Below are positions 309 to 21,383 of a stretch of DNA of 32,000 nucleotides, one piece after another. How positions within the stretch are numbered: position 1 is the first letter of the stretch; every line of letters begins with the position of its first letter. A program made the position numbers and the translations under genes. This DNA is from Clostridium sp. (GTDB lineage Bacteria; Bacillota; Clostridia; Clostridiales; Clostridiaceae). Under the pieces are notes generated by a model that saw only the letters and a list, made by a program, of their open reading frames with translations, did not search any database and was not told the origin of the DNA. The DNA lies in the NCBI RefSeq assembly GCF_050717515.1, contig NZ_JBOITL010000032.1, forward strand, positions 1 to 32,000, read 5' to 3'.

Positions 309-381
309 ATCTTTTATATCTCATTTATAATATGCAAATCAGTGTGTATACGTTGGAATAATATTGCTTAGTAAAATTAAA

Positions 382-436
382 TCTTAAGAAATCTTAAGGT
401 TTAATTACAATTTTCTTAAGTTTATTTTTGTAATAT
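382..436 (+). promoter_or_regulatory. Promoter copy 1 of the VanR-type regulon (upstream of vanY-1)
   Basis: TCTTAAG at 382-388 and 392-398 (10-bp phasing) and at 414-420, then TAATAT at 431-436 preceded by TG. There is no good -35, consistent with activator dependence. The same block recurs at 5235-5289 and 8538-8592. Confidence 0.6.
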
Positions 437-602
437 AAGAGAGTAAGGAATATGCAGTTTACTACGAGCACTATATAAGAAGTTTTAAAAGATTTTGTAT
501 GAAATTCTGAGGGGTGAGAATAAAAATTGCTCCTCCACGATTGAGATACAGTGGGGCCGAGGGTATCTGAGCTTACTAAAAATAAATAAGGAGGAATTTA
601 AG

Positions 603-1307
603 GTGAAAAAGAAAATTACAATAATTTTGATTTTAGGTATTATAGGGCTAATGTATATAAATAGTAGATATGGCGGGCTAAAAGTAATAGGGGGTGTAAT
701 TGAAAGGAGCACTTATGTTGAAACTGTTAAAGATATGTCTAATGAAAATAGCAATGTAGATGATGGTAACTTAATATTAGTGAATAGGAGAAATGAACTA
801 GATAAAGATTATGTTCCCAAGCATTTAAAAGTTCCAAATATCAGATTTTATTCTACCGTGTCAAATGAAGAAATGCAGATGGAAGAGGTTGCAGGCGATG
901 CGCTTAAAAAATTATTTGAAAAAAGTGAACAGGAGGGTATTATACTTTATGGACTATCTGGTTATAGATCTTATGCAACTCAAAAGGACTTATATGAAAA
1001 TAGTATTAAAACAAACGGAAAAGGATATACAGATAATTATGTGGCAATGGCAGGTAAAAGTGAACATCAATCAGGACTTGCAATGGATATAACTAATTCT
1101 AAAAAAAGTACAGGCTTTGAATATACAAAAGAAGGTATATGGCTTAAAGATAATGCTTATAAATTTGGATTTATAATAAGATATGGAAAAGGTAAAGAAG
1201 AGGTTACAGGTTATAATTATGAACCTTGGCATGTAAGGTATGTGGGGACTGAGAATTCAAAAAAAATTTACTTGAAGGATATTACTTTAGAGGAATTTTT
1301 AAAATAA
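603..1307 (+). CDS. vanY: VanY-like D-alanyl-D-alanine carboxypeptidase (peptidase M15B), membrane-anchored, copy 1
   Basis: The ORF track gives 495-1307. The likely start is GTG 603, 7 nt after AGGAGG (590-595). It has an N-terminal TM anchor (KKKITIILILGIIGLMYI). Zn-peptidase motifs SGYRSY, SEHQSGLAMD and EPWHVRYVG are present. It appears about 85% identical to the 8696-9424 copy (rough by-eye estimate). Confidence 0.85.
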   Translation: MKKKITIILILGIIGLMYINSRYGGLKVIGGVIERSTYVETVKDMSNENSNVDDGNLILVNRRNELDKDYVPKHLKVPNIRFYSTVSNEEMQMEEVAGDALKKLFEKSEQEGIILYGLSGYRSYATQKDLYENSIKTNGKGYTDNYVAMAGKSEHQSGLAMDITNSKKSTGFEYTKEGIWLKDNAYKFGFIIRYGKGKEEVTGYNYEPWHVRYVGTENSKKIYLKDITLEEFLK

Positions 1308-1376: not shown

Positions 1377-1386
1377 GGTCTTAACT

Positions 1387-1647
1387 GTAGTATATAATAA
1401 GATTATTACTTTAACCTCTACAGAATTTGAAATGTTACACGTATTAGCTAATAATACAGGAAGAGTTTTTAGTGCAGAAGAAATATTTCAAAGAGTTTGG
1501 AAAGAAAAATATTATCAATCAAACAATACAGTTATGACTCACATGAGTAAACTAAGGGAAAAGCTTGATGCGGTTTTAGAGGGTGAGAAACTTATTCATA
1601 CTATATGGGGAGTAGGGTATAAAATTGAAAAGAAAACTTATATATAA
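1387..1647 (+). pseudogene. vanR: 5'-truncated vanR (response regulator) remnant: only the C-terminal part of the winged-helix domain remains
   Basis: VVYNKIITLTSTEFEMLHVLANN...HTIWGVGYKIEKKTYI matches residues about 151-236 of the intact regulator at 9641-10351. The whole receiver domain is missing, and homology starts abruptly at about 1387. Confidence 0.85.
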
Positions 1648-2728
1648 ATTAGAGTTAAAAATAGTTTTTAATATATTGATTACTTTCATATTATCAACAT
1701 TAACAATGGCAGTAATTTATATTATGTGGAAGTTTTTTTTGGCAATAGGTGCAAGCTATTTACAACAATTTTTAGATAAAATTTATATGGCAAGGCAATA
1801 TGTGGATTTTACAAAGATAATAATTGCACTATGGATAATTATTTTTATAAGTTATTCTCATTTATTCATTTACAAGAAGCTAAAGTACTTTGTAGAAGTT
1901 GATGAACATATGAAAGCTATAGCCGCGGGTAGGATAGATAAAAAAATACCAGAACAATCGAAAGCAGAGCTTCGGAAAATAGCTAAAAATATGAATGAAA
2001 TAATAAATAAATTAAATAAATCAATAGAAGAAGAGCGGAGAGCAGAACAAACAAAATATGAATTAATAACAAATGTATCTCATGATTTACGCACTCCATT
2101 AACCTCAATATTAGGGTATCTTGAACTCATAGATAATGATAAATATAAAGATGAAGTTGAACTTAGATATTATGTAAATATTGCCTATGAAAAATCAAAA
2201 CGATTGAATAATTTAATCAATGATTTATTTCAGTATACTATAATGAGAAATAGTACTTTAAGATTAAATAAAGAATTAATAAATGTAATTGAACTTTTAA
2301 ATCAACTGGTATTGGAATTTAGGCCACAGTTTAGAAAAGTAGATATAGAGTGTAGGACATATTTTTCGGAGGATAAACTCTTAATAATGGCTGATGCAGT
2401 TAAAATGGCTAGGGCATTTGAAAATCTAATTTCTAATGGTATGAACTATGGTAGTGGGACTGAGTATATTGACATATGTACTAGGAAAGAAAATAATAGT
2501 GCGATTATAGAGATAATTAATTATGGTGAGCCAATACCAAGTATAGATATACCTTTTATTTTTGAAAGGTTCTATAGAGTTGAAAAATCACGTTCAGGAT
2601 TTACTGGAGGTTCAGGATTAGGTCTTGCTATAACCAAAAGTATAATAGAGCTTCATGAAGGTGAAATTTTTGTTGAAAGCAATTATGAGAGAACTGCTTT
2701 TATAATTAAATTGCCCTTGGGTATTTAA
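1625..2728 (+). CDS. vanS: VanS-like sensor histidine kinase, copy 1 (no intact cognate regulator next to it)
   Basis: TTG start overlaps the vanR remnant. It has two N-terminal TM helices with a short loop and a HAMP-like linker. H-box NVSHDLRTPLTSILGY and ATPase motifs NLISNGMNYG and GGSGLGLAITKSIIELHEGEI are present. The C-terminal region resembles Tn1546 VanS (FEKFYR...GGAGLGLAI). Confidence 0.85.
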   Translation: MKRKLIYKLELKIVFNILITFILSTLTMAVIYIMWKFFLAIGASYLQQFLDKIYMARQYVDFTKIIIALWIIIFISYSHLFIYKKLKYFVEVDEHMKAIAAGRIDKKIPEQSKAELRKIAKNMNEIINKLNKSIEEERRAEQTKYELITNVSHDLRTPLTSILGYLELIDNDKYKDEVELRYYVNIAYEKSKRLNNLINDLFQYTIMRNSTLRLNKELINVIELLNQLVLEFRPQFRKVDIECRTYFSEDKLLIMADAVKMARAFENLISNGMNYGSGTEYIDICTRKENNSAIIEIINYGEPIPSIDIPFIFERFYRVEKSRSGFTGGSGLGLAITKSIIELHEGEIFVESNYERTAFIIKLPLGI

Positions 2729-3051: not shown

Positions 3052-4101
3052 ATGGAAGCAATAATTATTATAATGACTACAATAGTTACATTAATTGTAT
3101 TTTTAGCATCATTTTTAATAGATAAAAGAAGACTTATAAATGGTTTTTTATTTAATATATTTTTAATGTCACTATTTATGGCTACAACATATTGTGCATT
3201 CAAAACACAAAATCGTATTTTGATTGGTTTTGTACTTATTATATTTATCATATTAGCAATAGTACTATTCTTTGCCGTTTATGCACTGATAATTGCATTA
3301 CTAATTAATTCAAAAATTGTTATAAAGAAAGAAGGACGAAGTATTTCTAATTTGCTAACATTATTTTTAGCAATAGGCTTGATAGGTATATTAATATGGT
3401 CAGCTATTAAGCCAGAAAGATTTTTGCCAGATGAGGCAAATGCGATATTAAGTTGTATTTACTTAATAGGGGTCTACTATTGCATTGATGTATTTAATTT
3501 TTTGGTAGCATCTTTAATTTATCAATTTAATAAACCTAAGTTAAATCAAGAGTTTGTTATTGTATTGGGATGTGGATTAAATAAAGATAAAGTTACACCT
3601 CTACTTGCTAGTCGTATAAACAAAGGAATTGAATTTTACAAAAATCAAGCACAAGTAACTACACCTCCAAAAATAATTTTTTCAGGAGGTAAGGGTAATG
3701 ATGAGGAAATATCAGAAGCACTAGCTATGTGTAGATATGCAATTTCTAATGGAGTTCCAGAGGAAGATTGTATTATGGAGGATAAATCAGTAAATACATT
3801 GCAAAACATGAGATTTTCCAATAAGATTATGGAAAAAATAAAAGGCAGTAGTGAATATAATAGTATATTTATTACTAATAATTTTCATCTATTTAGAGCA
3901 GGAATTTATGCTAAAAAGGCAAAATTGAAATCTCAAGGAATAGGTTCCAAGACAGCAATGTTCTTCATTCCAAATGCATTAATTAGGGAATATATCGCAA
4001 TAGCAGTTATGTATAAAAAAAGACATATAATTGTAGTAAGTATTCTTTTAGCAATAGGTATTGTACTAGCCTTTGTTGAACATTTTGCTATAGTAGGTTA
4101 A
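3052..4101 (+). CDS. Polytopic membrane protein with C-terminal DUF218 (YdcF/ElyC/SanA family) domain
   Basis: RBS GGAGG lies 9 nt upstream of the ATG. About 6 predicted TM helices are followed by VIVLGCGL...LLASRINKGIEFY...IIFSGGKGNDEEISEALAM...SVNTLQNM...ITNNFHLFRA, the DUF218 signature. Confidence 0.7.
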   Translation: MEAIIIIMTTIVTLIVFLASFLIDKRRLINGFLFNIFLMSLFMATTYCAFKTQNRILIGFVLIIFIILAIVLFFAVYALIIALLINSKIVIKKEGRSISNLLTLFLAIGLIGILIWSAIKPERFLPDEANAILSCIYLIGVYYCIDVFNFLVASLIYQFNKPKLNQEFVIVLGCGLNKDKVTPLLASRINKGIEFYKNQAQVTTPPKIIFSGGKGNDEEISEALAMCRYAISNGVPEEDCIMEDKSVNTLQNMRFSNKIMEKIKGSSEYNSIFITNNFHLFRAGIYAKKAKLKSQGIGSKTAMFFIPNALIREYIAIAVMYKKRHIIVVSILLAIGIVLAFVEHFAIVG

Positions 4102-4118
4102 ATACATATAAAATAACA

Positions 4119-4271
4119 TTTCGTTGCGATTTCCCAGAAGGTTATAATGTGGACAATTACAAATTCTTTCAGGACACGCCAACAATGGTTCTAAAAGATA
4201 ATGACATCATTGATATAGGAGGACGTTCTATTCAAGTGCTGCATACGCCTGGTCATTCACCGGGATACTAA
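4119..4271 (+). pseudogene. Internal fragment of an MBL-fold metallo-hydrolase
   Basis: Reads FRCDFPEGYNVDNYKFFQDTPTMVLKDNDIIDIGGRSIQVLHTPGHSPGY*. HTPGHSPG is the MBL-fold motif 3 context. There is no start, a premature stop, and a possible out-of-frame continuation (GSGTFDYKD) to about 4330. It is locally GC-richer than its surroundings. Confidence 0.55.
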
Positions 4272-4476
4272 ATTGCAGCACGGCAGTGGCACTTTTGACT
4301 ACAAAGATTTTGCTATCTGGATATAATTATGTTGACACGCTTTTGACTGCTATGAATAATATGCTACGGCATAGTTGCCGTAACCCCTATTTAGTTGTAG
4401 TTATATTTTATAGTCTCCTTATAGAATCACATTTAATAATTGGTTCAAAATAGTATCATTGTGTTAATTACTGCAC

Positions 4477-4620
4477 TTACAAGTGCACAGGCACTAAATA
4501 TAATTGCTGCCATGCCCATTTGTTTTTTTCACGTTTATGCTTACTTACAAGCAGTCCAATGATACCTACACATAATATTACAAGTGCCAATATACTTCCT
4601 TCAATAAACCCTACTTCCAT
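4477..4620 (-). CDS. Hypothetical small membrane protein (47 aa), below the ORF-track cutoff
   Basis: The minus strand has AAAGGAGAGAGA followed 7 nt later by ATG. It reads MEVGFIEGSILALVILCVGIIGLLVSKHKREKNKWAWQQLYLVPVHL*, with one clear TM helix. No homology is recognised. Confidence 0.25.
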   Translation of the reverse strand: MEVGFIEGSILALVILCVGIIGLLVSKHKREKNKWAWQQLYLVPVHL

Positions 4621-4654
4621 TAATCTATCTCTCTCCTTTTATTCTAAATCCCTC

Positions 4655-5095
4655 TTATTTACATCCTTCCATATCTGAATAAAGGTCCACTGTTTTTTGT
4701 ATCAATAGATCACTCACTATATCAACACCTAGTTGTTTCATCATTTGCTGTAAAAATTTCAACCTATTAACTGTTTCCGAAAGATTACGCTCAAAAAGAA
4801 TAGGATTAATCCATACATTTAAAAGAATCATAAAAACTTCTGCACATTCACTAGGATAGTCTGTTGTAATAGATCCATCTGCTTTCCCTTGCAAAATGAT
4901 CTTAGCAATTTTAGGAGCATCCTTAATAATACAATCCTTAATGCCTGTTACTACAAACTGTGGGTTTTTAACTTGTGAAGTTAGGACATTATTCATAGAC
5001 TGTATATTATTATCTGATAAAATAAAGTCTAATATATTTACAAGTTTTTCTCTGGCATTATTTTCCTGTATGTTTATTAGTAAACCATTAAACAT
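4655..5095 (-). pseudogene. TetR/AcrR-like regulator lacking its N-terminal HTH domain (5'-truncated)
   Basis: The 146-aa ORF has a TetR C-terminal-domain-like helical pattern (KIILQGKADGSITTDYPSECAEVFMILLNVWINP). An in-frame stop lies 21 nt upstream of the first Met, and no HTH is encoded before the repeat boundary at 5154. Confidence 0.45.
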
Positions 5096-5153
5096 TTGAG
5101 TAGTATAATCAGACCTTTACCGCAAAGTGTAAATTTACAACGTTAGTACGCCG

Positions 5154-5367
5154 AGCAAAGGTCAACAGGTAAACGGTTTTTAATAGAAATATCAGCTAAA
5201 CCATTTTGAAAAATTGATAAATTTTAAATTGTAATCTTAAGAAATCTTAAGGTTTAATTACAATTTTCTTAAACTTATTTTTGTAATATAAGAGAGTAAG
5301 GAATATGCATTTTACTTTATTGAAAAATTTTCAAATAAAAAAAATGTGTTATTTACTTAGATTTAAG
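5154..5367 (+). repeat. Left direct repeat (214 nt) carrying promoter copy 2
   Basis: Aligns by eye at about 90% identity with 8456-8665, from AGCAAAGGTCAACAGG to ATTTAAG. Confidence 0.85.
5235..5289 (+). promoter_or_regulatory. Promoter copy 2 of the VanR-type regulon (upstream of vanH)
   Basis: TCTTAAG at 5235-5241 and 5245-5251, TCTTAAA at 5267-5273, TAATAT at 5284-5289. The spacing is identical to copies 1 and 3. Confidence 0.6.
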
Positions 5368-5450
5368 AAAATATTTTACTTCTACGTTAATTTGAAATAG
5401 TATGCGATAAAAGCAAAGAAAAATGTAATATGAAAGGAGAAATCTAAATC

Positions 5451-6410
5451 ATGGCAAAAATAAAAATTACAATTTATGGATGCACACAGGACGAGGCCGT
5501 TTTGTTCCGAGAAATAGCGCCTCGCTTTGGAATTATGCCAACTATCACAGATGCAGTGGTATCTGAAGCTAATATTAAACTGGCATTTGGAAATCGATGC
5601 ATCAGCGTTGGTCATAAAACTCAAATCACAAATTCCATTCTTCTTGCGCTCAGCCAAGCTGGTGTAAGATATATCTCTACAAGAAGTATTGGATATAACC
5701 ATATTAATGTAAAATACGCAAAGAGCGTTGGCATTTCCATTGAAAATGTCACTTATTCGCCTGATAGCGTGGCTGATTACACATTAATGCTCATGCTGAT
5801 GGCGGTACGAAATACAAAATCCATTATTAGCCGTGCAGATATTTATGATTTCAGATTGAATGATGTACGCGGGAAAGAATTACGTGATATGACCATTGGC
5901 GTAATTGGAACAGGACGCATTGGCGCTGCGGTTATTGAAAGGCTGAGGGGCTTTGGCTGCAATATATTAGCCTATGACCATCGGTCCATATCCTCTGATG
6001 ATTACGTTCCTCTTAATGAATTGTTACAGCAGAGCGATATTATAACGCTCCATACACCACTTAAAGAGGATACAAACCATCTTATTAATCGTCAACGTAT
6101 CGAGCAGATGAAGCACGGCGCGTTTATTATCAATACTGGACGCGGTTCACTTATCGATACCGAGGCTCTTATTTCAGCGTTGGAAAGTGGTAAACTAGGC
6201 GGTGCGGCATTGGATGTACTCGAAGGAGAGGAAGGAATATTCTACTTTGACTACAGAAAAAAAACCATTGAAAACAAACTGCTGTTGCGGTTACATAAAC
6301 TAACGAATGTGATTATTACTCCGCACACCGCCTATTACACAGAACACGCCTTGAAAGATACCGTTGAAAATACTATTATCAATTGCTTGAAATTTGAAAG
6401 GAGAGAGTAG
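5451..6410 (+). CDS. vanH: VanH, D-specific 2-hydroxyacid (pyruvate to D-lactate) dehydrogenase
   Basis: Full-length by-eye match to Tn1546 VanH (YGC.QDEA, CISVGHK, YISTRSIG.NHI, YSPDSVADYT, GTG.IG.AVIERLRGFGC, GKLGGAALDVLEGEE, NVIITPHTAYYTE, FERR). GC is clearly above that of the flanks. Confidence 0.92.
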   Translation: MAKIKITIYGCTQDEAVLFREIAPRFGIMPTITDAVVSEANIKLAFGNRCISVGHKTQITNSILLALSQAGVRYISTRSIGYNHINVKYAKSVGISIENVTYSPDSVADYTLMLMLMAVRNTKSIISRADIYDFRLNDVRGKELRDMTIGVIGTGRIGAAVIERLRGFGCNILAYDHRSISSDDYVPLNELLQQSDIITLHTPLKEDTNHLINRQRIEQMKHGAFIINTGRGSLIDTEALISALESGKLGGAALDVLEGEEGIFYFDYRKKTIENKLLLRLHKLTNVIITPHTAYYTEHALKDTVENTIINCLKFERRE

Positions 6411-6411
6411 C

Positions 6412-7452
6412 ATGGATAGGTTAAAAATCGCAATTATATTTGGGGGTTGTTCCGAGGAACATCCTATCTCCGTTAAATCAGCACAAGAGGTCGCAAAAAA
6501 CCTTGATATGGAAAAGTATGAACCGTTCTATATCGGGATTACGAAAAATGGCGTTTGGAAGCTTTGTCACTGCCCTGACGCAAATTGGGAAAATGGAAGT
6601 TGCTGTCCGGCTATACTGTCACCGGACAGAAGCGTACACGGATTGCTTGTTCTGGAGCAGGGACAATACAAAACAATTCGTTTGGATATGGTGTTTCCCG
6701 TCCTGCATGGCAAACTTGGCGAGGATGGTGCGATGCAAGGTTTGTTGGAGCTTTCCGGCATCCCCTATGTAGGCTGCGATGTCCAAAGTTCTGCTCTGTG
6801 TATGGACAAATCCCTTGCTTTTATTGTCGCTAGAAACGCGGAAGTTGCTACGCCAAATTTCTGGACTGTCATGGCCAACGAGAATATTGATGCCGACCAG
6901 CTTACTTATCCCGTTTTTGTAAAGCCGGCCCGTTCAGGTTCATCTTTCGGCATCACTAAGGTATGTCGAAAAGAAGAATTGCTGAGTGCGATGGAAACCG
7001 CAAGACAGTATGACTCGAAGGTGTTGATTGAAGAGGCTATCGTCGGCAGCGAGGTAGGATGTGCGATATTAGGGAACGATATGGATTTGATTGTAGGCGA
7101 GGTAGATCAAATTTGTCTATCTCATGGTTTTTTCAAAATCCATCAGGAGAATAAGCCTGAAAACGGTTCTGAAAACTCAACAGTAATAGTTCCTGCTGAC
7201 ATTTCGTCAGAGGCGCGCTTGCTTGTTCAGGAGACAGCAAAAACCGTATATCGCGCTTTGGGATGCAGGGGACTTTCGCGGGTAGATATGTTCCTTACGG
7301 AAGATGGAAAAGTAATACTTAACGAGGTTAATACTTTGCCTGGTATGACCTCATACAGCCGTTATCCGAGAATGATGGTGGCCGCAGGTTTGCCGTTTGC
7401 CGAAGTGATCGACCGGATTATATCGTTGACAGTGAAAGGAGAAAGGCGATGA
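6412..7452 (+). CDS. VanA/B/D-class D-alanine--(R)-lactate ligase (subtype not assignable by eye)
   Basis: Start ATG 6412 lies 7 nt after AGGAGAG. IIFGGCSEEH, YIGITKNGVWK, HGK.GEDGA.QGL.ELSGIPYVGCD.QSSA.CMDKSL, YPVFVKPARSGSSFG, EVGCAILGN, GEVDQI..SHGFFKIHQE..PE.GSEN and LNEVNTLPG.TSYSRYPRMM are present. The His in KIHQE is the depsipeptide-ligase signature. Several segments (GSEVGCAILGN, HGFFKIHQE) look closest to VanD. Confidence 0.9.
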   Translation: MDRLKIAIIFGGCSEEHPISVKSAQEVAKNLDMEKYEPFYIGITKNGVWKLCHCPDANWENGSCCPAILSPDRSVHGLLVLEQGQYKTIRLDMVFPVLHGKLGEDGAMQGLLELSGIPYVGCDVQSSALCMDKSLAFIVARNAEVATPNFWTVMANENIDADQLTYPVFVKPARSGSSFGITKVCRKEELLSAMETARQYDSKVLIEEAIVGSEVGCAILGNDMDLIVGEVDQICLSHGFFKIHQENKPENGSENSTVIVPADISSEARLLVQETAKTVYRALGCRGLSRVDMFLTEDGKVILNEVNTLPGMTSYSRYPRMMVAAGLPFAEVIDRIISLTVKGERR

Positions 7453-8057
7453 AAAATGATTTTGTCTTTGTAGACGAATTTGTACACGGAATACGTTGGG
7501 ATGCTAAATACGCCACATGGGATAATTTTACCGGCAAACTGGTGGACGGATATGTAGCAAATCGAATTGTCGGTACGAGAGCTTTGTGCGCAGCCCTGGA
7601 AAAAGCACGAGAAAACGCCGCTTCCTTTGGCTTTGGCTTGCTTCTTTGGGATGGTTATCGCCCTCAATGCGCCGTAGATTGTTTTCTGCGCTGGTCAAAA
7701 CAGCCGGAAAATGGCCAGACGAAACTAAAACACTATCCGAATATTGACAAAACCGAGATAGTTGAAAAAGGATATGTGGCCGCTAAGTCGGGGCACAGTC
7801 GCGGCAGCGCAATTGACTTAACCCTCTATCATTTAGCTACCGGTACACTTGTTCCAATGGGCGGCGACTTTGATTTGATGGATTCAGTCTCACATCATGG
7901 AGCAAAAAGAATCACGCAAGTCGAAGCGAGAAACCGTCAATACCTTTGTTCTATCATGGAGGCCTGCGGTTTTGTTTCATATGATTGCGAGTGGTGGCAC
8001 TACACACTGAAACACGAACCTTATCCAAACACTTATTTTGATTTTCCCATCACATAG
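7449..8057 (+). CDS. vanX: VanX D-Ala-D-Ala dipeptidase
   Basis: ATGA overlap with the ligase stop. VHG.RWDAKYATWDNFTGK.VDGY, LLLWDGYRP, SGHSRGSAIDLTLY, EWWHY and PYPN.YFDFP match Tn1546 VanX throughout. Confidence 0.92.
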   Translation: MKNDFVFVDEFVHGIRWDAKYATWDNFTGKLVDGYVANRIVGTRALCAALEKARENAASFGFGLLLWDGYRPQCAVDCFLRWSKQPENGQTKLKHYPNIDKTEIVEKGYVAAKSGHSRGSAIDLTLYHLATGTLVPMGGDFDLMDSVSHHGAKRITQVEARNRQYLCSIMEACGFVSYDCEWWHYTLKHEPYPNTYFDFPIT

Positions 8058-8249
8058 TTGAGGCGGTCAAAAAAATTGCCAAAAGCATTGAAAGTACTTA
8101 TAGCAGCTAATATTTAGGCAACATAATCTATAAAGGTACTGTATTATTTCAATAACTAAATTTTAGATACATAAATATTTAATATTAACAGTTTCATGTA
8201 AACGATGGTTTGCAAGGAGCTGTTATATTTTATTTTAGAAAAGAGGTAA

Positions 8250-8402
8250 GTTCATAAAAAATTTAAACATAGCCTAACTGAATTCTCGGATATAATAGAT
8301 AAAGCAACCCCTGAGGGATTAAAGAATGCTAAGGCTAAAGGTATTAAGTTGGGTAGACCTAACAGGATTTTACAGAAGACTTTAAAAAAATATGAATTAT
8401 AA
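8250..8402 (+). pseudogene. C-terminal remnant of a serine recombinase (resolvase/invertase family)
   Basis: Reads ...SLTEFSDIIDKATPEGLKNAKAKGIKLGRPNRILQKTLKKYEL*. This resembles the AEFER...ERT.EGL..AKA.G...GRP linker region. There is no catalytic N-terminal domain, and an in-frame stop lies at 8247-8249. Confidence 0.5.
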
Positions 8403-8455
8403 AAGAGGGGTGTAACCTTCTTTTTTTATGGAATGAATATATATGCTTGAAAGCA

Positions 8456-8665
8456 AGCAAAGGTCAACAGGCAAAACAGTTTCTAATAGAAACATCAGCT
8501 AAACCATTTTGAAAAATGGATAAAATTTAAATTGTAATCTTAAGAAATCTTAAGGTTTAATTACAATTTTCTTAAACTCATTTTTGTATTATAAGAAAGT
8601 AAGGAATATGCATTTTACTTTGTTGAAGAATTTTCAAAAAAAATGTGTTATCACTTGAATTTAAG
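8456..8665 (+). repeat. Right direct repeat (210 nt) carrying promoter copy 3
   Basis: About 90% identical to 5154-5367. It continues directly into the vanY-2 ribosome-binding site. Confidence 0.85.
8538..8592 (+). promoter_or_regulatory. Promoter copy 3 of the VanR-type regulon (upstream of vanY-2/vanR/vanS)
   Basis: TCTTAAG at 8538-8544 and 8548-8554, TCTTAAA at 8570-8576, TATTAT at 8587-8592. Confidence 0.6.
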
Positions 8666-8695: not shown

Positions 8696-9424
8696 GTGAA
8701 AAAGAAAACTGGAGTGATTTTGATTTTAGGAATTGTATGCTTAATGTACATAAACAGCAAATATGGTAGTATAAAAGTTATAGGGGATGTAATTGAAAGG
8801 AAAACTTATATTGAATCTATTAAAGATATGTCTAATGAGAATAGCAATGTAGATGATGGAGAGTTAATATTAGTGAATAGAAAAACTACTTTGGATAAGG
8901 ATTATGTTCCACATAATTTAAAAGTTGCAAAGGTTAATATTTATCCTACCGTTTCAGATGAAGAAATGCAAATGGAAGGAAATGCAGCGGATGCACTTAA
9001 AAAACTATTTGATCAAGGTAAGGAGGAAGGAATTATACTTTATGCATTATCTGGCTATAGATCTTATGCAACTCAAAAGGACTTATATGAAAATAGTATT
9101 AAAACAAATGGAAAAGGGTATACATATAAGTACGTGGCAATAGCAGGTAAAAGTGAACATCAATCAGGACTTGCAATGGATATAACTAATGCTAAAAAGA
9201 GTACAGGTTTTGAAAACACTAAAGAAGGTAAATGGCTTCAAAAGAATGCTTATAAATTTGGATTTATAATAAGATATGGAAAAGGAAAAGAAGATATTAC
9301 AGGTTATAATTATGAACCTTGGCATGCAAGGTATGTAGGTGCTGAGAATTCAGAGAAAATTTACTCAAAGGATATTACTTTGGAGGAGTTTTTAAAATCT
9401 GTAACAATCAAAGTATATAATTAA
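8696..9424 (+). CDS. vanY: VanY-like D-alanyl-D-alanine carboxypeptidase (M15B), copy 2
   Basis: The ORF track gives 8645-9424. The likely start is GTG 8696 after AGGAGG (8682-8687). It has the same TM anchor and the SGYRSY, SEHQSGLAMD and EPWHARYVG motifs. Its C-terminus is 8 aa longer than copy 1. Confidence 0.85.
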   Translation: MKKKTGVILILGIVCLMYINSKYGSIKVIGDVIERKTYIESIKDMSNENSNVDDGELILVNRKTTLDKDYVPHNLKVAKVNIYPTVSDEEMQMEGNAADALKKLFDQGKEEGIILYALSGYRSYATQKDLYENSIKTNGKGYTYKYVAIAGKSEHQSGLAMDITNAKKSTGFENTKEGKWLQKNAYKFGFIIRYGKGKEDITGYNYEPWHARYVGAENSEKIYSKDITLEEFLKSVTIKVYN

Positions 9425-9640: not shown

Positions 9641-10351
9641 ATGGGTAAAAATATATTAGTTGTAGATGATGATAAAGAAATAGTTAATTTAATTGAAATA
9701 TATTTAACTAATGAAGGACATAATATTTACAAAGCATATGATGGTGAACAAGCTTTGCAGGTTATAGATAATTATAATATAAATCTTATAATACTAGATA
9801 TAATGATGCCTAAAATTGATGGTATAGAAGTGTGTAACAAAGTTCGCGAGAAACTTAATATACCTATAATTATGTTAAGTGCTAAAAATCAAGATTCAGA
9901 TAAAATAAAAGGGTTATTGTCAGGAGCTGATGATTATATGGTAAAACCCTTTAATCCTTTAGAACTTATGGTTAGAGTTAAGTCTATATTTAGAAGGATT
10001 TACGAATTCGATAAAAATAGTGATGAATTAAAAGATAGAGATACTATAGTTATAGGACCACTTAAAATTAAAAAATCCACTCATCAGGTAGAAGTATATA
10101 ATAAGATTATTGCTTTAACTTCTACAGAATTTGAAATATTACACGTCCTAGCTAATAATCCAGGGAGAGTTTTTAGTGCAGAAGAAATATTTCAAAGAGT
10201 TTGGAAGGAAAAATATTATCAATCTAATAATACAGTTATGACTCACATGAGTAAATTAAGAGATAAGCTTGATGAAGTTTTAGATGGTGAGAAACTTATT
10301 CATACTATATGGGGAGTAGGGTATAAAATTGAAAAGAAAACTTATATATAA
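9641..10351 (+). CDS. vanR: VanR-like OmpR-family response regulator (the only intact copy)
   Basis: Receiver domain (VVDDD, phospho-acceptor context LIILDIMMP, SAKN, DDYMVKPF) plus a winged helix ending NNTVMTHMSKLRDKL...TIWGVGYKIEKK. Compare Tn1546 VanR, which ends NNTITVHIRHLREKM...TVWGVGYKIEK. Confidence 0.88.
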   Translation: MGKNILVVDDDKEIVNLIEIYLTNEGHNIYKAYDGEQALQVIDNYNINLIILDIMMPKIDGIEVCNKVREKLNIPIIMLSAKNQDSDKIKGLLSGADDYMVKPFNPLELMVRVKSIFRRIYEFDKNSDELKDRDTIVIGPLKIKKSTHQVEVYNKIIALTSTEFEILHVLANNPGRVFSAEEIFQRVWKEKYYQSNNTVMTHMSKLRDKLDEVLDGEKLIHTIWGVGYKIEKKTYI

Positions 10352-11432
10352 ATTAGAGTTAAAAGTAGTTTTTAATATATTTCTTGTTTTTCTATTATCA
10401 GCATTAACAATGGCAGTATTTTATATTATGTGGAAGTTTTTTTTGGTAATATGTACAATCTATTCACAACGATTTTTAGATATAATTTATAGGCTAAGGC
10501 AATATGTCGATTTTATAAATATAACAAGTGCACTATGGATAATAATTTTTATAAGTTATTCCCATTTATTGCTTTACAAGAAAATTAAGTACTTTGTAGA
10601 AGTTGATGAACATATGAAAGCTATAGCCGCGGGTAGGATAGATAAAAAAATACCAGAACAATCGAAAGCAGAGCTTGGGAAAATGGCTAAAAATATGAAT
10701 GAAATAATAGAAAAATTAAATAAATCAATAGAAGAAGAGCGGAGAGCAGAACAAACAAAATATGAATTAATAACAAATGTATCTCATGATTTACGCACTC
10801 CATTAACCTCAATATTAGGGTATCTTGAACTAATAGATAAGGATAGATATGAAGATGAAGTTAGGCTTAGATACTATGTAAGTATTGCCTATGAAAAATC
10901 AAAGCGATTGAATACTTTAATTGATGACTTATTTCAATATACTATAATGAGAAATAGTACTTTAAAATTAAAAAAAGAATCAATAAACGTAATTGAACTT
11001 TTAAATCAAGTGGTATTGGAATTTAATCCACAGTTTAGAAAAAAAAATATAGAATGTAGGACATATTTTTCGGAGGATAAACTCTTAATAATGGCTGATG
11101 CAGCTAAATTAGCTAGAGCATTTGAAAATCTAATTTCTAACGGTATGAACTATGGAAGTGGGACTGAGTATATTGACATATGTACTAGGAAAGAAAATAA
11201 TAGTGCGGTTATAGAGGTAATTAATTATGGTGAGCCAATACCAAGTATAGATGTACCTTTTATTTTTGAAAGGTTCTATAGAGTTGAAAAGTCACGTTCG
11301 GAATTTGCTGGAGGATCAGGACTCGGTCTTGCTATAACTAAAAGTATAATCGAGCTTCATGAGGGTGAAATTTTTGTTGAAAGCAATTATGAGAGAACTG
11401 TTTTTATAATTAAATTGCCCTTGGGTAGTTAA
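10329..11432 (+). CDS. vanS: VanS-like sensor histidine kinase, copy 2
   Basis: TTG start overlaps the vanR 3' end. Same architecture and motifs as 1625-2728. The HAMP/DHp region is nearly identical at nucleotide level, while the N-terminal sensor part is much more diverged. Confidence 0.88.
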   Translation: MKRKLIYKLELKVVFNIFLVFLLSALTMAVFYIMWKFFLVICTIYSQRFLDIIYRLRQYVDFINITSALWIIIFISYSHLLLYKKIKYFVEVDEHMKAIAAGRIDKKIPEQSKAELGKMAKNMNEIIEKLNKSIEEERRAEQTKYELITNVSHDLRTPLTSILGYLELIDKDRYEDEVRLRYYVSIAYEKSKRLNTLIDDLFQYTIMRNSTLKLKKESINVIELLNQVVLEFNPQFRKKNIECRTYFSEDKLLIMADAAKLARAFENLISNGMNYGSGTEYIDICTRKENNSAVIEVINYGEPIPSIDVPFIFERFYRVEKSRSEFAGGSGLGLAITKSIIELHEGEIFVESNYERTVFIIKLPLGS

Positions 11433-11477
11433 TAAGATTTTAGAAATTACTTATGAAATATGATTTTGATGTAAAAG

Positions 11478-11633: not shown

Positions 11634-12485
11634 ATAATCGATATAATATTTTTAGTAAAAGCAATTATAATAGCAATAGTAGAAGGGCTAACGGAGTTTA
11701 TCCCAGTATCTTCTACAGGACACATGATATTAGTTGGATGGGCAATTGGGTTTCAAGGGAAATTTGCAGAGATGTTTGAAGTTGTAATTCAACTTGGAGC
11801 AATAATGGCAGTGGTTGTTTTATATTGGAAGAAGATTAAAGAAAGTTTAATAGAATTTTTTAAGTTTATATTTACTAAAGGAAAAGAGGGAAAGAAAGGA
11901 TTTAAATTTGGGGTAAATGTTATTATAGCATCTATTCCCATGGGAATTGTAGGAGTATTATTATACGATAAAATCAAATCAAAATTTGTACCAGAAGCTG
12001 TCATAGTAGGATTTATAGTTGGTGGATTATTGTTATTAATAATTGAAAAGAGATTTGGGGGTAGGGATCATAAAGTAGAAAGTATAGATAACATAACACC
12101 TGTACAAGCATTTAAAATTGGGTTATTACAACTTCTTTCTGTATGGCCAGGAATGTCAAGAAGTGCGTCTACAATCATGGGTGGGTGGATTGCTGGATTA
12201 ACAACACCAATAGCAGCAGAGTTTTCATTTTTCATAGCCATTCCCGCTATGATAGGGGCAACAGGTAAGGATTTATTTGAATTTGATTATTCTGTAATGA
12301 CGAAAACATTATGGATTGCATTAATAGTTGGATTTATTGTAGCCTTCATAGTATCTATAATAGTTATGAAAAAATTTGTTGATTACTTGAAAAAGAAGCC
12401 GATGAAAGTTTTTGCAGTATATAGAATAGTAATAGGAAGTCTACTTGGGATATTAGTATTAACTAAGATTATTATTTTAACATAG
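11634..12485 (+). CDS. uppP: Undecaprenyl-diphosphate phosphatase UppP/BacA; the start codon is apparently non-canonical
   Basis: The ORF track starts at Met 11724. The conserved N-terminal motif VEGLTEFIPVSSTGH is encoded in frame upstream (11679-11723). The frame is open only back to TAA 11631-11633 and holds no ATG/GTG/TTG in between. RBS GGAGTGG at 11624-11630 precedes ATA 11634 and ATC 11637. Confidence 0.8.
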   Translation: MIDIIFLVKAIIIAIVEGLTEFIPVSSTGHMILVGWAIGFQGKFAEMFEVVIQLGAIMAVVVLYWKKIKESLIEFFKFIFTKGKEGKKGFKFGVNVIIASIPMGIVGVLLYDKIKSKFVPEAVIVGFIVGGLLLLIIEKRFGGRDHKVESIDNITPVQAFKIGLLQLLSVWPGMSRSASTIMGGWIAGLTTPIAAEFSFFIAIPAMIGATGKDLFEFDYSVMTKTLWIALIVGFIVAFIVSIIVMKKFVDYLKKKPMKVFAVYRIVIGSLLGILVLTKIIILT

Positions 12486-13246: not shown

Positions 13247-13744
13247 TTATTTTGTAAGCTTAATTATTATATCCTTATGTTGAGAATATTTATTTAAGAG
13301 AGTATCTCTTTCAAATATCTCAAAATCTTTAAAGTCAAAGCCAGGGGATACCATACATCCAACAAGCGAGTACCCTGGAATATTCATAGCAGAACCAAAA
13401 ATGTAATTTTTAGGTACCAAAAACTGTGGAGTTTCTCCATTTTCTATATTAAGACCTAGTTGCTTAGTCGTAAGTTCTCCATTTGGACTTATCATATATA
13501 TTGTAAGAGGGGAGCCTGCATGGTAGTACCACATTTCATCTGATTTTAATCTATGAAAACTTGAGATTTCGCCATCTCTTAATAAAAAATAAATACTAGT
13601 CCAAAGTGTTCTTTCACCTTCAAACTTAGTTTTAAGGTTATTGGAGCTAATATTTTCACAAGAGCAGAAGCTACTTTTGTAAAAACCACCTTCAGGATGA
13701 GCTTCCATATTTAATGTGTCAATAAAGTATTGGGATGAGTACAT
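13247..13744 (-). CDS. Cupin-fold protein (DUF985-like)
   Basis: 165-aa ORF with MEAHPEGGFYK...FHRLKSDEMWYYH.G, typical of the DUF985 cupin family. GGAG lies upstream of the ATG on the minus strand. Confidence 0.65.
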   Translation of the reverse strand: MYSSQYFIDTLNMEAHPEGGFYKSSFCSCENISSNNLKTKFEGERTLWTSIYFLLRDGEISSFHRLKSDEMWYYHAGSPLTIYMISPNGELTTKQLGLNIENGETPQFLVPKNYIFGSAMNIPGYSLVGCMVSPGFDFKDFEIFERDTLLNKYSQHKDIIIKLTK

Positions 13745-13974: not shown

Positions 13975-15069
13975 ATGAAAAGAAAATTTCTAACAATTTT
14001 AATAGTAGGAGTGATTTGTATATCCATGGTGGCTTGTAATAAGTCTACGGAGGAAAAATCAAAACAAGCTCAAAATAAAACGGAACAAACAGAAACTAAA
14101 AAAGAAGATGCAGGAAAGAAATTTGAAAATTTAGGTATTGAATATAAATTACCAGATAAGTGGAAAGCAAAAGAGAAAAATATAGATTTACTTGGAATTG
14201 ATGGAGGAGAAAATATAATAGGACAGCTTATGTTTAGCTTTACATCTACTGAAACTATGAACAAGATTGAGAAATCAAATGAGGATTCAAAAAAAATCCC
14301 AGAAACAGACAAAGTAAAAATGGAGAAATTTCAAACAGAATTTATGAATTTATTAAAAGAGAGTAAAGAATTATGTACTATTGTAACTATAGATAAAAGT
14401 AAAACCGCAGGCAAAGCGCAAAAAGAATTGTTCGCCAAGTTTAAAAATAAGGATTTATTAGGTAAAGAAGGTAACTTTGAAATTTACTTATTACATAATG
14501 ATGTACCTGAGGAAAGTGGATTATCGGATAAATCTAAAAAAGATTTTAAAGAAGTATATGGAGAAATTAAAAATTTTAAAAGTTTGATTAAAACATCTAA
14601 ACCAGTATCAGAAAAAGAAAAATTAAACAAATATAAGAAGTTTGAGTTTAAAACTAAAACTTTAGATGGAAAAGAAATAGATAGTAGTATTTTTAAAGAT
14701 AGTAAGCTTACTATGATAAATATATGGGCTACATATTGTGGACCATGTATAGAAGAAATGCCAGATCTTCAAAAGCTTTACGAAGAAGTTAAGGGGGAGA
14801 AGATTAATGTGATTGGTCTTGTTTCAGACACACCTGACGCGGATAATGAAGAATTAGCTAAACAAATTTTACAAAAAAAAGGTGCCAAGTTTACTAATAT
14901 TATTCCAGATGAAAGCATTAAAAATAATATATTGAAAGATGTTTCAGGGGTTCCTACTACATTATTTGTTGACAGTAAAGGTAATATTGTTGGAGACTTT
15001 ATAGTTGGTTCACATAGTAAAGAAGACTATAAGAAAGAAATAGAAGCTAGGCTTAAAAGTATAAAATAG
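13975..15069 (+). CDS. Lipoprotein with C-terminal TlpA/ResA-like thioredoxin domain and a long N-terminal domain of unknown function
   Basis: Start ATG 13975 lies 6 nt after AAAGGAGAA. Signal peptide with lipobox (ISMVAC). About 230 K/E-rich residues with no family I recognise, then INIWATYCGPCIEEMPDL (CGPC active site) and GVPTTLFVD (cis-Pro loop). Confidence 0.75.
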   Translation: MKRKFLTILIVGVICISMVACNKSTEEKSKQAQNKTEQTETKKEDAGKKFENLGIEYKLPDKWKAKEKNIDLLGIDGGENIIGQLMFSFTSTETMNKIEKSNEDSKKIPETDKVKMEKFQTEFMNLLKESKELCTIVTIDKSKTAGKAQKELFAKFKNKDLLGKEGNFEIYLLHNDVPEESGLSDKSKKDFKEVYGEIKNFKSLIKTSKPVSEKEKLNKYKKFEFKTKTLDGKEIDSSIFKDSKLTMINIWATYCGPCIEEMPDLQKLYEEVKGEKINVIGLVSDTPDADNEELAKQILQKKGAKFTNIIPDESIKNNILKDVSGVPTTLFVDSKGNIVGDFIVGSHSKEDYKKEIEARLKSIK

Positions 15070-15190
15070 AAGTGTAAATGAATTATAGTTCAGAAGTAAA
15101 CTACCTCACCTTATATTAGGTGGGGTATATATCATAATTGGGGTTATTAATTTTAAGAGTAAAAATTTTATTATAAGCTAATTATAGGAA

Positions 15191-15376
15191 ATGAAAAAAA
15201 GATGGGATGTGAATTTTATGAATACAAATAGGCTTACTAAAAGCCAAGGATTAATGAAATATGGGATTCTAACAATGAGTATTTTATTTATTTCTACTGG
15301 AATATACAGAAATGAAGTAAGAATTGTATTCAGAAAAGCAATAAATATATGTTTGGAGTGTATAGGCATTGGATAA
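15191..15376 (+). CDS. Small membrane protein with C-terminal CXXC (CD1871A-family-like); start uncertain
   Basis: One TM helix (YGILTMSILFISTGIY) and a C-terminal INICLECIGIG. Alternative starts are M10 and M22. Its stop overlaps the TTG start of the next gene by 8 nt. Confidence 0.55.
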   Translation: MKKRWDVNFMNTNRLTKSQGLMKYGILTMSILFISTGIYRNEVRIVFRKAINICLECIGIG

Positions 15377-16199
15377 AAGAAGAATAACGCAAATTGTTGC
15401 AGCTATAACCACAAATGCAAATGTAAATGGGTTTTTAAAAGGTAATATATATAAAGGCGCCACAAAGAAAGTGTGTGTTCCAGGCTTAAACTGTTACTCT
15501 TGTCCTGGAGCAGTAGGTTCCTGCCCTATAGGTTCACTGCAGGCGGTTATAGGAACTGTAAAATATAATGTTTCATTATATATACTTGGAATCATGTCTT
15601 TATTTGGTGTTATATTTGGTAGATTTGTATGTGGATGGTTATGTCCTTTTGGTCTTATTCAAGATTTATTATATAAAATACCTTCTAAAAAGATAAAAGT
15701 AAATATAAAAGTCAATAATATACTTAAGTATTTAAAATATATTATATTGGCATTATTTGTTATAATATTACCCATGTTTTTAGTAAATGAATTTGGAATA
15801 AGTCCTCCATATTTTTGTGAATACATATGTCCGGCGGGCACACTAGAAGGTGGCATACCATTAGTTTTAATGAATGTATCACTAAGGAGAGCTCTAGGAT
15901 ACTTATTTGTATGGAAGATGTTTGTACTAATTAGCATTATTATTGCTTCAATATTTATATATAGACCATTTTGTAGGTATATATGTCCCTTAGGAGCATT
16001 TTACTCCTTATTTAATAAAGTGAGTTTTTACAAATATGAAGTAGATAAAAACAAGTGTACAAACTGTAGTGCTTGTGTTAGAAAATGTAAGATGAATATA
16101 GAAATATATAAAAATCCTAACAGTGCTGAGTGTATTAGGTGTGGTGAGTGTGTAACAGCTTGCCCTACAAAGGCTATAAAAAAAGGATTTAGGCGTTAA
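15369..16199 (+). CDS. NapH/NosR-like polytopic 4Fe-4S-binding membrane protein
   Basis: Membrane-proximal Cys motifs CYSCPGAVGSCP, CGWLCPFG, CEYICPAG and CRYICPLG. A C-terminal 2x[4Fe-4S] ferredoxin domain (CTNCSACVRKC ... CIRCGECVTACP). About 5 TM helices. Confidence 0.8.
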   Translation: MDKRRITQIVAAITTNANVNGFLKGNIYKGATKKVCVPGLNCYSCPGAVGSCPIGSLQAVIGTVKYNVSLYILGIMSLFGVIFGRFVCGWLCPFGLIQDLLYKIPSKKIKVNIKVNNILKYLKYIILALFVIILPMFLVNEFGISPPYFCEYICPAGTLEGGIPLVLMNVSLRRALGYLFVWKMFVLISIIIASIFIYRPFCRYICPLGAFYSLFNKVSFYKYEVDKNKCTNCSACVRKCKMNIEIYKNPNSAECIRCGECVTACPTKAIKKGFRR

Positions 16200-16242: not shown

Positions 16243-16245
16243 TTT

Positions 16246-16306
16246 TAAGGTTTGTTTAAGGTTAATGTTATCAAGAGGTAAGGTTAACCTTATATAATGT
16301 ATTTAT
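16246..16306 (+). promoter_or_regulatory. TAAGGTT-box promoter, copy b (upstream of the ABC-2 transporter operon)
   Basis: Same 61-nt block as 13869-13929. TATAAT at 16293-16298. Confidence 0.65.
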
Positions 16307-16344
16307 AGCAAGATATACCGAAGAAGAATACAAGGAGGAACAAA

Positions 16345-17364: not shown

Positions 17365-17399
17365 TTAATAGATTTTAAAATTAGAGGAGGAATATAATT

Positions 17400-18287: not shown

Positions 18288-18290
18288 CTT

Positions 18291-19055: not shown

Positions 19056-19102
19056 TCAGTTAGTTTTTATGGTATTATATAGTTAGAAACTTAAAGACAT
19101 TT

Positions 19103-19139
19103 CAAAAGACTAAACAATTAATAATTGTCTAGTCTTTTG
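19103..19139 (+). terminator. Long hairpin after the ABC operon (17-bp stem, one mismatch); probable terminator or attenuator
   Basis: CAAAAGACTAAACAATT-AAT-AATTGTCTAGTCTTTTG. The T-run is confined to the stem end. Confidence 0.5.
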
Positions 19140-19193
19140 AAGTATTTAAGACAAGATCTTTATGTGATGATTTAATTTTAAGGGGTGATAATT

Positions 19194-19913: not shown

Positions 19914-19915
19914 AG

Positions 19916-21331: not shown

Positions 21332-21383
21332 ACAAGTATTTTATTTAAAGTTTTTTAAAGCATAATAAAAATGGGGGTTTACG

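Follow-up and report, generated by a model that had tools for sequence, protein, structure and literature searches.

How does a resistance operon that reaches a new host without a regulator become inducible there? The question is raised by a locus in the window, that is, the 32,000-nt stretch (positions 1 to 32,000 of contig NZ_JBOITL010000032.1) analysed here from a metagenome-assembled genome (MAG) of Clostridium sp. In this locus a cassette of vanH, a D-Ala-D-Lac ligase gene and vanX (together HAX) lies between two vanY-vanR-vanS (vanY-R-S) modules, in the order vanY1, vanR remnant, vanS1, spacer, vanH-ligase-vanX, vanY2, vanR2, vanS2 (Table 1). Read from the genes alone, the predicted resistance is that of a complete glycopeptide-resistance locus of the D-Ala-D-Lac (VanA-like) kind. 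The answer proposed here, to which a probability of about 75% is given, is that HAX came by a single horizontal transfer, that it would be run from a copied VanR-box promoter of the clade under VanS2 and VanR2, that it moved together with vanY2-R2-S2, and that its left junction was rearranged later.

The flanking core genes of the window are 89-93% identical (about 90%) to those of Clostridium tagluense, and from this it follows that the host is a species of its own within the psychrotolerant C. tagluense/estertheticum complex. The informative van loci of this complex were reached only via VanY homologues: those of C. tagluense CS002 (L082, NZ_JAIZZM010000004), of a C. tagluense genome with an empty site (L085) and of C. 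estertheticum (L083). A scan of genome contigs with the ligase as query returned no locus of Clostridium sensu stricto, and exact matching of the ligase, VanX, VanR2, the DUF218 protein and the TetR remnant led to no contig. Further sequences used are a Dehalobacterium MAG (L086), Syntrophomonas (L003), Clostridium sp. CF011 (L081) and a metagenome contig of the Joint Genome Institute, JGI (L092).

An intact cassette of foreign origin

A preliminary description, made from the letters of the window, had read three coupled genes in 5451-8057, and with this the coordinates, the ATGA overlap between ligase and vanX, the single nucleotide between vanH and ligase, and the scores of all three products above curated NCBIfam cut-offs agree. 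In the VanI model the window ligase scores 714.4 bits and the CS002 ligase 715.6 (cut-off 700). The omega-loop segment has His in D-alanine--(R)-lactate ligases and Tyr in Ddl enzymes. The window ligase reads FKIHQEN, and its His aligns with the His of FRIHQE in VanA (1E4E), as expected from the depsipeptide-type residue described earlier; the same place in the local vanG-like ligase reads NDYIEKY. The ligase is 96.2% identical to that of CS002, 93.6% to that of the Dehalobacterium MAG, 74% to a permafrost VanA (3SE7) and 63% to the VanA of E. faecium (1E4E), and the VanX translation shows the zinc-binding and catalytic motifs SGHSRGSAID and EWWH. Between the cassettes of the window and CS002 the divergence is 0.012-0.027 at codon positions 1+2 and 0.044-0.084 at position 3, and the low value at positions 1+2 implies purifying selection on the cassette genes. 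The HAX transcript probably ends at a hairpin at 8401-8431 with a 9-bp stem (-10.3 kcal/mol, z = -2.6), which is conserved in CS002 and was found by folding after a consensus terminator scan had missed it.

The composition of the cassette differs from that of its surroundings. In 300-nt windows the GC content is 0.37-0.50 across 5401-8100 and 0.23-0.32 in the flanks, the GC content at third codon positions (GC3) is 0.37-0.45 in the cassette versus 0.15-0.24 in host genes, and both quantities step at the cassette boundaries. The contrast in GC noted earlier is thereby borne out, and so is a discontinuity in codon usage, but the limits first given for it, from the vanH ATG to the vanX stop, are too narrow: donor-type homology, as delimited by BLAST, occupies about 5369-8109, beginning 82 nt ahead of the vanH ATG and reaching 52 nt beyond the vanX stop.

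Within this interval the DNA is 94% identical to the Dehalobacterium MAG, 87-92% to Anaerobacterium, Syntrophomonas, Desulfosporosinus and the JGI contig, and 70-82% to actinomycetes. A neighbour-joining tree puts the ligase together with those of CS002 and other Firmicutes in a subclade inside the actinobacterial VanA radiation, the same placement that has been given for the CS002 ligase (PMC9689679). When substitutions are polarised with five outgroups, GC-to-AT changes outnumber AT-to-GC changes by 36 to 6 among those common to the window and CS002, by 26 to 1 among those private to the window and by 18 to 4 among those private to CS002; the cassette is drifting toward the base composition of its host. 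GC, phylogeny, AT-biased substitutions and the empty site of C. tagluense L085 all bear out the foreign nature of HAX, and the vanH-ligase-vanX block is accordingly best described as a horizontal transfer from higher-GC Firmicutes like Dehalobacterium, Desulfosporosinus or Anaerobacterium, with actinobacteria as the ultimate source. In the nearest donors the genes are arranged as vanRS - S11 peptidase - vanHAX, from which it follows that the clostridial lineage received HAX without its regulator.

The promoter in front of vanH

What, then, precedes vanH in the new host? The cassette is bracketed by the direct repeats 5154-5367 and 8456-8665, which are identical in 195 of 215 alignment columns (90.7%), in keeping with the earlier count of about 210 bp and 90%. 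The homology of the left repeat is lost at 5367, 84 nt before the vanH ATG, while the right repeat extends to 15 nt before the ribosome-binding site (RBS) of vanY2. The left repeat consists of 80 nt of upstream sequence, a core at 5235-5272, a -10-like TATAAG at 5287-5292 and a tail of type b; the 80 nt, which are not promoter sequence, are included in both repeats. With a GC content of 0.23-0.27 the left repeat is host-like, and it is 93.5% identical to the vanY promoter of CS002 (L082 9759-9971). The promoter before vanH is thus, as had been proposed, a duplicate of the vanY2 promoter region, fused to a donor leader.

The 38-nt core TCTTAAGAAATCTTAAGGTTTAATTACAATTTTCTTAA occurs exactly at 382, 5235 and 8538 in the window, where the chance expectation is 0. 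It holds two TCTTAAG boxes that start 10 nt apart and a third box 22 nt on, which lies over the -35 position and is followed by a -10-like element; no TTGACA-like hexamer is found at the -35 position of the core promoters. A third box in this place without such a hexamer is typical of activator-dependent promoters of the OmpR/PhoB type. In an alignment of nine promoters from four genomes (three from the window, two from CS002, one from L085 and three from C. estertheticum), all nine retain both TCTTAAG boxes, the 22-nt distance to the third box and the TCTTAA of the latter without change, and the -10 region varies at only a few positions. In Tn1546, PvanR carries ATCTTAAGAAATTCTTAG, and PvanH aligns box for box with the window core, with the same 22-nt spacing and a TAATAT element. 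There is, in other words, good sequence evidence for the 38-nt core as a predicted VanR-type operator-promoter. Since the VanY-VanR-VanS system and its promoter occur also in the C. estertheticum and the empty-site loci, the view that both are native to the clade stands.

After the core the promoters differ in their tails: type a is found in window PvanY1, CS002 PvanH and L085 PvanY, and type b in window PvanH, window PvanY2, CS002 PvanY and C. estertheticum PvanY. Outside a core block of about 85 nt the two repeats are only 69-91% identical, and their longest unbroken match is 68 nt; the core itself is perfectly kept in the left repeat, while its flanks have drifted. It is a reasonable inference that the repeats would permit loss or amplification of the cassette.

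The core also precedes genes of other kinds. In C. estertheticum, cores in L083 at 9836-9971, 13296-13385 and 15023-15116 stand before vanY, an S11 D,D-carboxypeptidase gene and vanW-vanG-vanT, respectively, and one sensor system appears to serve this D-Ala-D-Ser cluster; a second, partial vanS (3' half, 94% identical) lies at L083 19653-20366, 7 kb downstream and beside a VanZ-like gene. In L092 an exact 38-nt core (2450-2487, minus strand) precedes two open reading frames (ORFs), 1827-2300 (157 aa) and 1473-1820 (115 aa), which are divergent from a gene for a PcsB/3D-domain peptidoglycan hydrolase and have no Pfam match; they may be further cargo of the same regulon.

One acquisition, two left junctions

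To see how the promoter and the cassette were joined, consider first the state without the cassette. In C. tagluense L085 the order is WYL-gene remnant, promoter, vanY-R-S, araC, murE, SDF transporter, bacA, PAP2, cupin, redoxin, with no HAX. The flanks in C. tagluense CS002 are 95-99% identical to these, and HAX is placed between promoter and vanY. The empty site that had been anticipated in relatives does exist, then, with vanY-R-S only; the intact tetR beside a single repeat copy that was to go with it does not, as there is no tetR there.

On the right side, the window and CS002 have identical junctions: donor homology ends at about 8109, and the AT-rich sequence that follows is shared up to the vanY promoter. 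The sole difference is the segment 8251-8402, with a serine-recombinase remnant, which is found in the window only and is bounded by AAAGAGG micro-repeats; in CS002 it is deleted between these. The cassettes themselves are 96.5% identical over 2607 nt without gaps, and they share 46 derived substitutions with respect to the five outgroups. The shared right junction and the shared derived substitutions speak for a single acquisition, in an ancestor shared with the CS002 cassette, and the notion of a HAX event private to the window genome has to be given up.

On the left side the two loci differ. In CS002 a resident type-a promoter is fused to about 150 nt of donor leader, with donor homology from L082 6780. 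In the window a type-b promoter is followed by 82 nt of donor leader, joined after ...ATTTAAG to AAAATATTTTAC; the donor reads GAGTGAAGAAAAG at the join point, which implies that the left join was made by microhomology. That the window junction could be ancestral to that of CS002 was considered and rejected, because CS002 retains about 46-68 nt more of the donor leader; from this it follows that the left junction of the window is a later rearrangement.

Two vanY-R-S modules

Which of the two vanY-R-S modules belongs to the host? Window 358-1305 is 92.5% identical to L085 9752-10703, and the third-codon divergence of vanY1 from L085 is 0.132, a value like that of core genes. On position and sequence, vanY1-deltaR-S1 is taken as the resident locus, orthologous to that of the empty site. 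The module next to HAX behaves differently. The third-codon divergence of vanY2 from L085 is 0.201, and between the window and CS002 it is 0.041 for vanY2, 0.059 for vanR2 and 0.04-0.09 for vanY2-R2-S2 overall, which resembles the 0.044-0.084 of HAX, as compared with 0.123-0.141 for bacA, PAP2, cupin and redoxin. Furthermore, the vanY genes of CS002 and L085, both C. tagluense, are in sliding-window identity only 68-86% identical although the flanks are 95-99% identical. It follows from these divergences, and from the contrast between CS002 and L085, that HAX and a type-B vanY-R-S passed jointly from one lineage of the complex to another. VanY proteins of the type-A cluster occur in at least five genomes of C. 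tagluense, FP1 and FP2, and the HAX-linked VanY type is found only in CS002 and in this MAG.

The preliminary description had a foreign HAX plugged into a resident VanY-VanRS regulon. The foreign cassette and the clade-native promoter duplicate remain; the residency of the adjacent regulon does not, as vanY2-R2-S2 has the HAX-like divergence of a co-imported module (0.04-0.09 against 0.12-0.14 for core genes).

A spacer of 2.4 kb separates the resident type-A module from the type-B/HAX module that follows it. In the resident module vanR1 keeps only the C-terminal part of the DNA-binding domain, the receiver domain being replaced by filler DNA. Part of this filler, 1341-1368 (within 1308-1380), is 28/28 identical to 16164-16191, the 3' end of a ferredoxin-type gene at 15369-16199, and encodes CPTKAIKKGF in frame; it looks like sequence copied during the deletion.

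Since the source is a MAG, the tandem order could in principle exist in no cell, the contig being a fusion of two co-occurring strains, of which the first would carry an empty type-A locus and the second HAX with type B. The two modules are indeed two allele types that are found separately in isolates, and repeated promoter cores could mislead an assembler. Against this, 2.4 kb of unrelated unique DNA (the DUF218 gene and fragments) and no repeat join separate the modules, the vanR1 deletion filler and the left junction of HAX are unique sequences, across which reads must have run, the HAX-vanY2 side recurs independently in the isolate CS002, and the repeats have the low identity outside the core block and the 68-nt longest match given above. 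An artefact of assembly is regarded as highly improbable.

Fragments in the spacer and an improbable on-the-spot insertion

At 35 nt from the left repeat there is a truncated tetR. Encoded on the minus strand at 4655-5095, the TetR remnant has no N-terminal helix-turn-helix (HTH), about 62 codons being missing; when it is aligned with an intact 216-aa TetR of CF011, the homology stops at 5118, so the loss of the HTH seen earlier is real. The remnant is 100% identical to a protein of a Clostridium sp. MAG, whose accession numbers give vanY1, the remnant and vanY2 in the same order as in the window. The whole tetR piece amounts to 750 bp, and in CF011 it comes from an unrelated neighbourhood with no van genes near. 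Given that neighbourhood and an empty site without tetR, the fragment is unrelated debris rather than, as previously supposed, the target of an insertion.

This bears on a simpler history, in which HAX would have inserted in this very genome into its own resident vanY-R-S, disrupting tetR and duplicating the promoter on the spot. Such an event would account for repeats that bracket the cassette, for a truncated tetR close to the left one and for a promoter of host-like GC. It does not agree with a cassette, a right junction and 46 derived substitutions shared with CS002, by which the acquisition predates this genome, nor with the divergence of vanY2-R2-S2 from CS002, which is 2-3 times lower than that of the core genes; no tetR is present at the L085 empty site, and the intact CF011 tetR has its unrelated neighbourhood. 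This history is very unlikely and already largely refuted, and the co-movement of HAX with vanY2-R2-S2 after one earlier acquisition is preferred.

A serine-recombinase remnant had been reported just inside the right repeat, and it is there: of the 27 residues that align with positions 139-165 of a 199-aa serine recombinase, encoded on a C. estertheticum plasmid, 23 are identical. Nothing but this remnant matched when window positions 1-25000 were compared by megablast with 72,556 plasmids. The gene fragments at the locus suggest that plasmid-like DNA of this clade was either the carrier of the module or a partner in its recombination. The idea that the TetR and recombinase remnants derive from one plasmid segment was dropped, as the plasmid-adjacent TetR is unrelated to the window remnant.

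The remainder of the spacer is a patchwork. The DUF218 protein (3052-4101) is intact, has a weak NCBIfam match to ElyC, and its gene has no match in the L082, L083 or L085 loci. Between 4101 and 4655 the GC content is 0.36-0.37 and there is no long ORF, only gene fragments between the van modules, among them a 40-codon fragment of metallo-beta-lactamase fold (4149-4271, HTPGHSPG) and a 47-aa ORF that accompanies tetR in CF011.

Table 1. Features of the van locus in the window, with the evidence for each
Feature	Positions	Strand	Evidence or remark
VanR-box promoter core before vanY1	382..419	+	Exact 38-nt match; type-a tail as in the C. tagluense empty-site promoter
vanY1, M15 D,D-carboxypeptidase, resident copy	603..1307	+	Pfam VanY 3.4e-38; GTG start with RBS
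vanR1 remnant	~1380..1647	+	Trans_reg_C model positions 14-77 only; alignment to vanR2
vanS1, intact histidine kinase without partner regulator	1625..2728	+	Protein 87% identical to VanS2
DUF218 membrane protein gene	3052..4101	+	Pfam DUF218 1.1e-28; in the 2.4-kb spacer between modules
tetR-locus fragment (TetR remnant ORF 4655-5095)	4371..5118	-	92.6% identical to L081 10188-11171
Left direct repeat, duplicate of vanY2 promoter region	5154..5367	+	195/215 columns identical to 8456-8665
Donor-derived vanH leader including RBS	5369..5450	+	Alignments with CS002, Dehalobacterium L086 and Syntrophomonas L003; BLAST limits
vanH, D-lactate dehydrogenase	5451..6410	+	NCBIfam vanH_gen 560 bits (cut-off 540)
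D-Ala-D-Lac ligase gene, VanI/environmental clade	6412..7452	+	NCBIfam VanI 714 (cut-off 700), D_ala_D_lac 635 (550)
vanX, D-Ala-D-Ala dipeptidase	7449..8057	+	NCBIfam VanX 394 bits (cut-off 320)
Donor-derived 3' flank; right donor/host junction ~8109	8058..8109	+	Alignment with CS002; BLAST limits
Serine-recombinase remnant, recognisable 8313-8393	8250..8402	+	Absent from CS002
Terminator-like hairpin and U-run between vanX and vanY2 promoter	8401..8431	+	Folding
Right direct repeat, vanY2 promoter region, core 8538-8575	8456..8665	+	Sequence alignment
vanY2, M15 D,D-carboxypeptidase, HAX-linked, GTG start 8696	8696..9424	+	97% identical in DNA to the CS002 gene
vanR2, OmpR/PhoB-type, sole intact VanR of the locus	9641..10351	+	Pfam Response_reg and Trans_reg_C; NCBIfam vanR_ACDEGLN 290 bits (cut-off 350)
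vanS2, sensor histidine kinase	10329..11432	+	HAMP, HisKA, HATPase_c; NCBIfam HK_VanS 266 bits (cut-off 400)

Proposed wiring and history

The proposed wiring is as follows. The cassette, without its donor regulator, sits behind the 214-bp copy of the vanY2 promoter region. VanS2 would sense glycopeptide and phosphorylate VanR2, and phosphorylated VanR2 would then activate three promoters: PvanH, giving VanH, ligase and VanX in a transcript that ends at the hairpin; PvanY2, giving VanY2 and probably reading on into vanR2-vanS2; and PvanY1, giving VanY1 and the orphan VanS1. HAX and vanY2 would in this scheme be separate transcription units, and the cell-wall precursors would be rebuilt to end in D-Ala-D-Lac.

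As for the history, HAX and vanY2-R2-S2 would move as one module within the C. tagluense/estertheticum complex, and in the present lineage the module would have come to lie beside the resident vanY1-R1-S1, which then lost its regulator. The left junction may well have arisen when the HAX unit was duplicated in tandem, a step that would by itself yield the observed join between tail b and leader position -82; a later deletion reaching into the upstream copy would leave the present structure.

Several observations weigh against this proposal. An intact OmpR-type regulator and a HAMP-HisKA kinase adjoin the cassette and VanR-like boxes precede vanH, but VanR2 and VanS2 score below the cut-offs of the NCBIfam Van models (290 versus 350 and 266 versus 400), and they are relatives of characterised VanRS pairs rather than certified members; control by VanR2 is suggested by the conservation of its boxes only. 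The 82-nt donor leader keeps TGTAATAT just before the RBS, and some VanR-independent transcription is possible from it. The left junction and the tandem order of the modules are known from this MAG assembly alone. Finally, the left and right repeats differ by 9%, while the right copy differs from CS002 by 4-5%; a recent duplication within the lineage fits poorly with these values, which suggest that the duplication is older or that the left copy has decayed faster. The divergence between the copies covers 215 sites only and leaves the duplication undated relative to the split from CS002.

If the first two of these points are given full weight, the cassette could be cryptic, either silent or transcribed independently of VanR, for instance from the TGTAATAT element of the donor leader, with the promoter copy idle. 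Cryptic van clusters are known in clostridia, an example being vanG in C. difficile, and no phenotype report, including one for CS002, was found in the searched literature. It would then have to be explained why three intact genes are under purifying selection in two lineages, why the core is perfectly kept in the left copy while the flanks have drifted, and why two different rearrangements have put the same VanR-box core before vanH, which is hard to understand without selection. Cryptic status is on balance unlikely, and control of HAX by VanS2 and VanR2 remains the preferred reading.

The region downstream

At 11461-11475, between vanS2 and bacA, about 4 kb that both C. tagluense loci contain is missing from the window; this stretch carries an araC-type regulator gene, murE and the gene of an SDF-family transporter. 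The bacA ORF from the ATG at 11724 might seem truncated, but this was rejected, as C. tagluense calls start at an ATC that is also present at 11637; in bacA 11637-12485 the 29 extra codons from this conserved ATC encode the usual EGLTEFIPVSSTGH motif, and bacA probably uses a rare ATC start. After the ferredoxin-type gene follows a 67-nt sequence (16243-16309) with copies of about 90% identity at L082 18928-18994 and L085 18920-18986, where they are flanked by the cupin and redoxin genes; the sequence may belong to a short intergenic repeat family of the clade. The rest of the window (16345-24905, 29032-31986) is dense in modules of envelope-stress type: an ABC transporter with two membrane proteins (16345-19055), two more OmpR-type two-component systems (19185-21331 and 22898-24905) and a MacB/FtsX-type ABC system (29032-31986). 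A GH129 glycosidase is encoded at 25097-27418.

Implications

The vanHAX clusters of anaerobes from the environment and the food chain are under watch as potential stepping stones from soil actinomycetes to clinical Gram-positives. The present locus and CS002 suggest a route by which a regulator-less cassette may become inducible, namely by capturing the promoter of a sensor system that the host already has. The three related states (empty site, one fusion, a different fusion) make this wiring step directly testable, and the direct repeats predict loss or amplification of the cassette, which would appear as heteroresistance.

A wider generalisation can be put forward tentatively, at somewhat less than even odds. 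The VanR-box promoter of about 85 nt would be a portable module that stands before at least five kinds of cargo (vanY, the S11 carboxypeptidase gene, vanW-vanG-vanT, vanHAX and the two L092 ORFs), and after one acquisition vanHAX would have been captured by it in two ways, through a deletion-type fusion to the resident promoter in CS002 and through a microhomology-joined duplication of the vanY2 promoter here, probably as the remnant of an amplification. If this holds, the window is a snapshot of a foreign, regulator-less resistance operon becoming inducible in a new host, in which the 214-bp repeats leave the cassette able to excise or amplify.

Part of this is known. The gene content and the HAX-YRS order were published in 2022 for CS002 (PMC9689679), and the window is a variant of that locus, so that the gene order, which the preliminary description had held to be unlike known layouts, is not wholly new. 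No published description was found of the shared promoter module, the empty site, the two promoter-vanH junctions or the co-transfer with vanY-R-S. What is new is the promoter capture, seen in two versions, and the gain is one of mechanistic detail rather than a new kind of system.

Comparison with known systems

The closest known system is vanHAXYRS of CS002, listed in Genes 2022 (PMC9689679). It has the same cassette, the same junction after vanX, the same allele type of vanY-R-S (94-98% identical), the same VanR-box core before vanH and vanY, and the same bacA, PAP2, cupin and redoxin genes downstream. The differences are at the promoter of vanH, which in CS002 is of type a with a leader of about 150 nt and in the window a type-b duplicate with 80 nt of upstream flank and an 82-nt leader, and in the direct repeats, which measure 84 nt in CS002 and 214 nt in the window. 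CS002 is, further, without the recombinase remnant, the upstream vanY1-deltaR-S1, the DUF218 gene and the tetR debris, and it keeps araC-murE-SDF after vanS. Near its locus no mobile-element genes were reported except one distant ISNCY transposase (PMC9689679).

With the vanI cluster of Desulfitobacterium hafniense (Kruse et al. 2014, PMC4229326) the window shares a ligase that passes the VanI model and falls in the same Firmicutes subclade inside the actinobacterial radiation (PMC9689679). The D. hafniense van loci are without a vanH orthologue in the cluster (PMC9689679); in the window, by contrast, vanH lies directly upstream of the ligase gene, vanH, ligase and vanX form one contiguous, translationally coupled block, and downstream of it lies the regulator with an M15 vanY.

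The vanA operon of Tn1546 (vanRS-vanHAX-vanYZ) has the same enzymatic logic, a three-box vanH promoter and an associated serine recombinase of the resolvase type. Unlike it, the window has a ligase that is 63% identical to VanA, the order HAX then YRS, a chromosomal locus, and a promoter of the host clade that vanG-type and vanY operons also carry. Of the features of transposons of the Tn1546/Tn1549 type, no transposase or conjugation genes and no terminal inverted repeats are found at the window locus, only the 27-codon recombinase remnant, and the bracketing repeats are direct promoter copies, not transposon ends.

In the vanG-type cluster of C. estertheticum (vanY-R-S, S11 peptidase, vanW-vanG-vanT) an identical core stands before each effector operon, and its regulatory genes are close to those of the window, with DNA identities of 98% for vanR, 92-95% for vanS and 84-91% for vanY. 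The effectors are different: a D-Ala-D-Ser ligase and a serine racemase in C. estertheticum, where VanG scores 544 bits (cut-off 495) and VanT-G 565 (cut-off 460), and vanHAX in the window.

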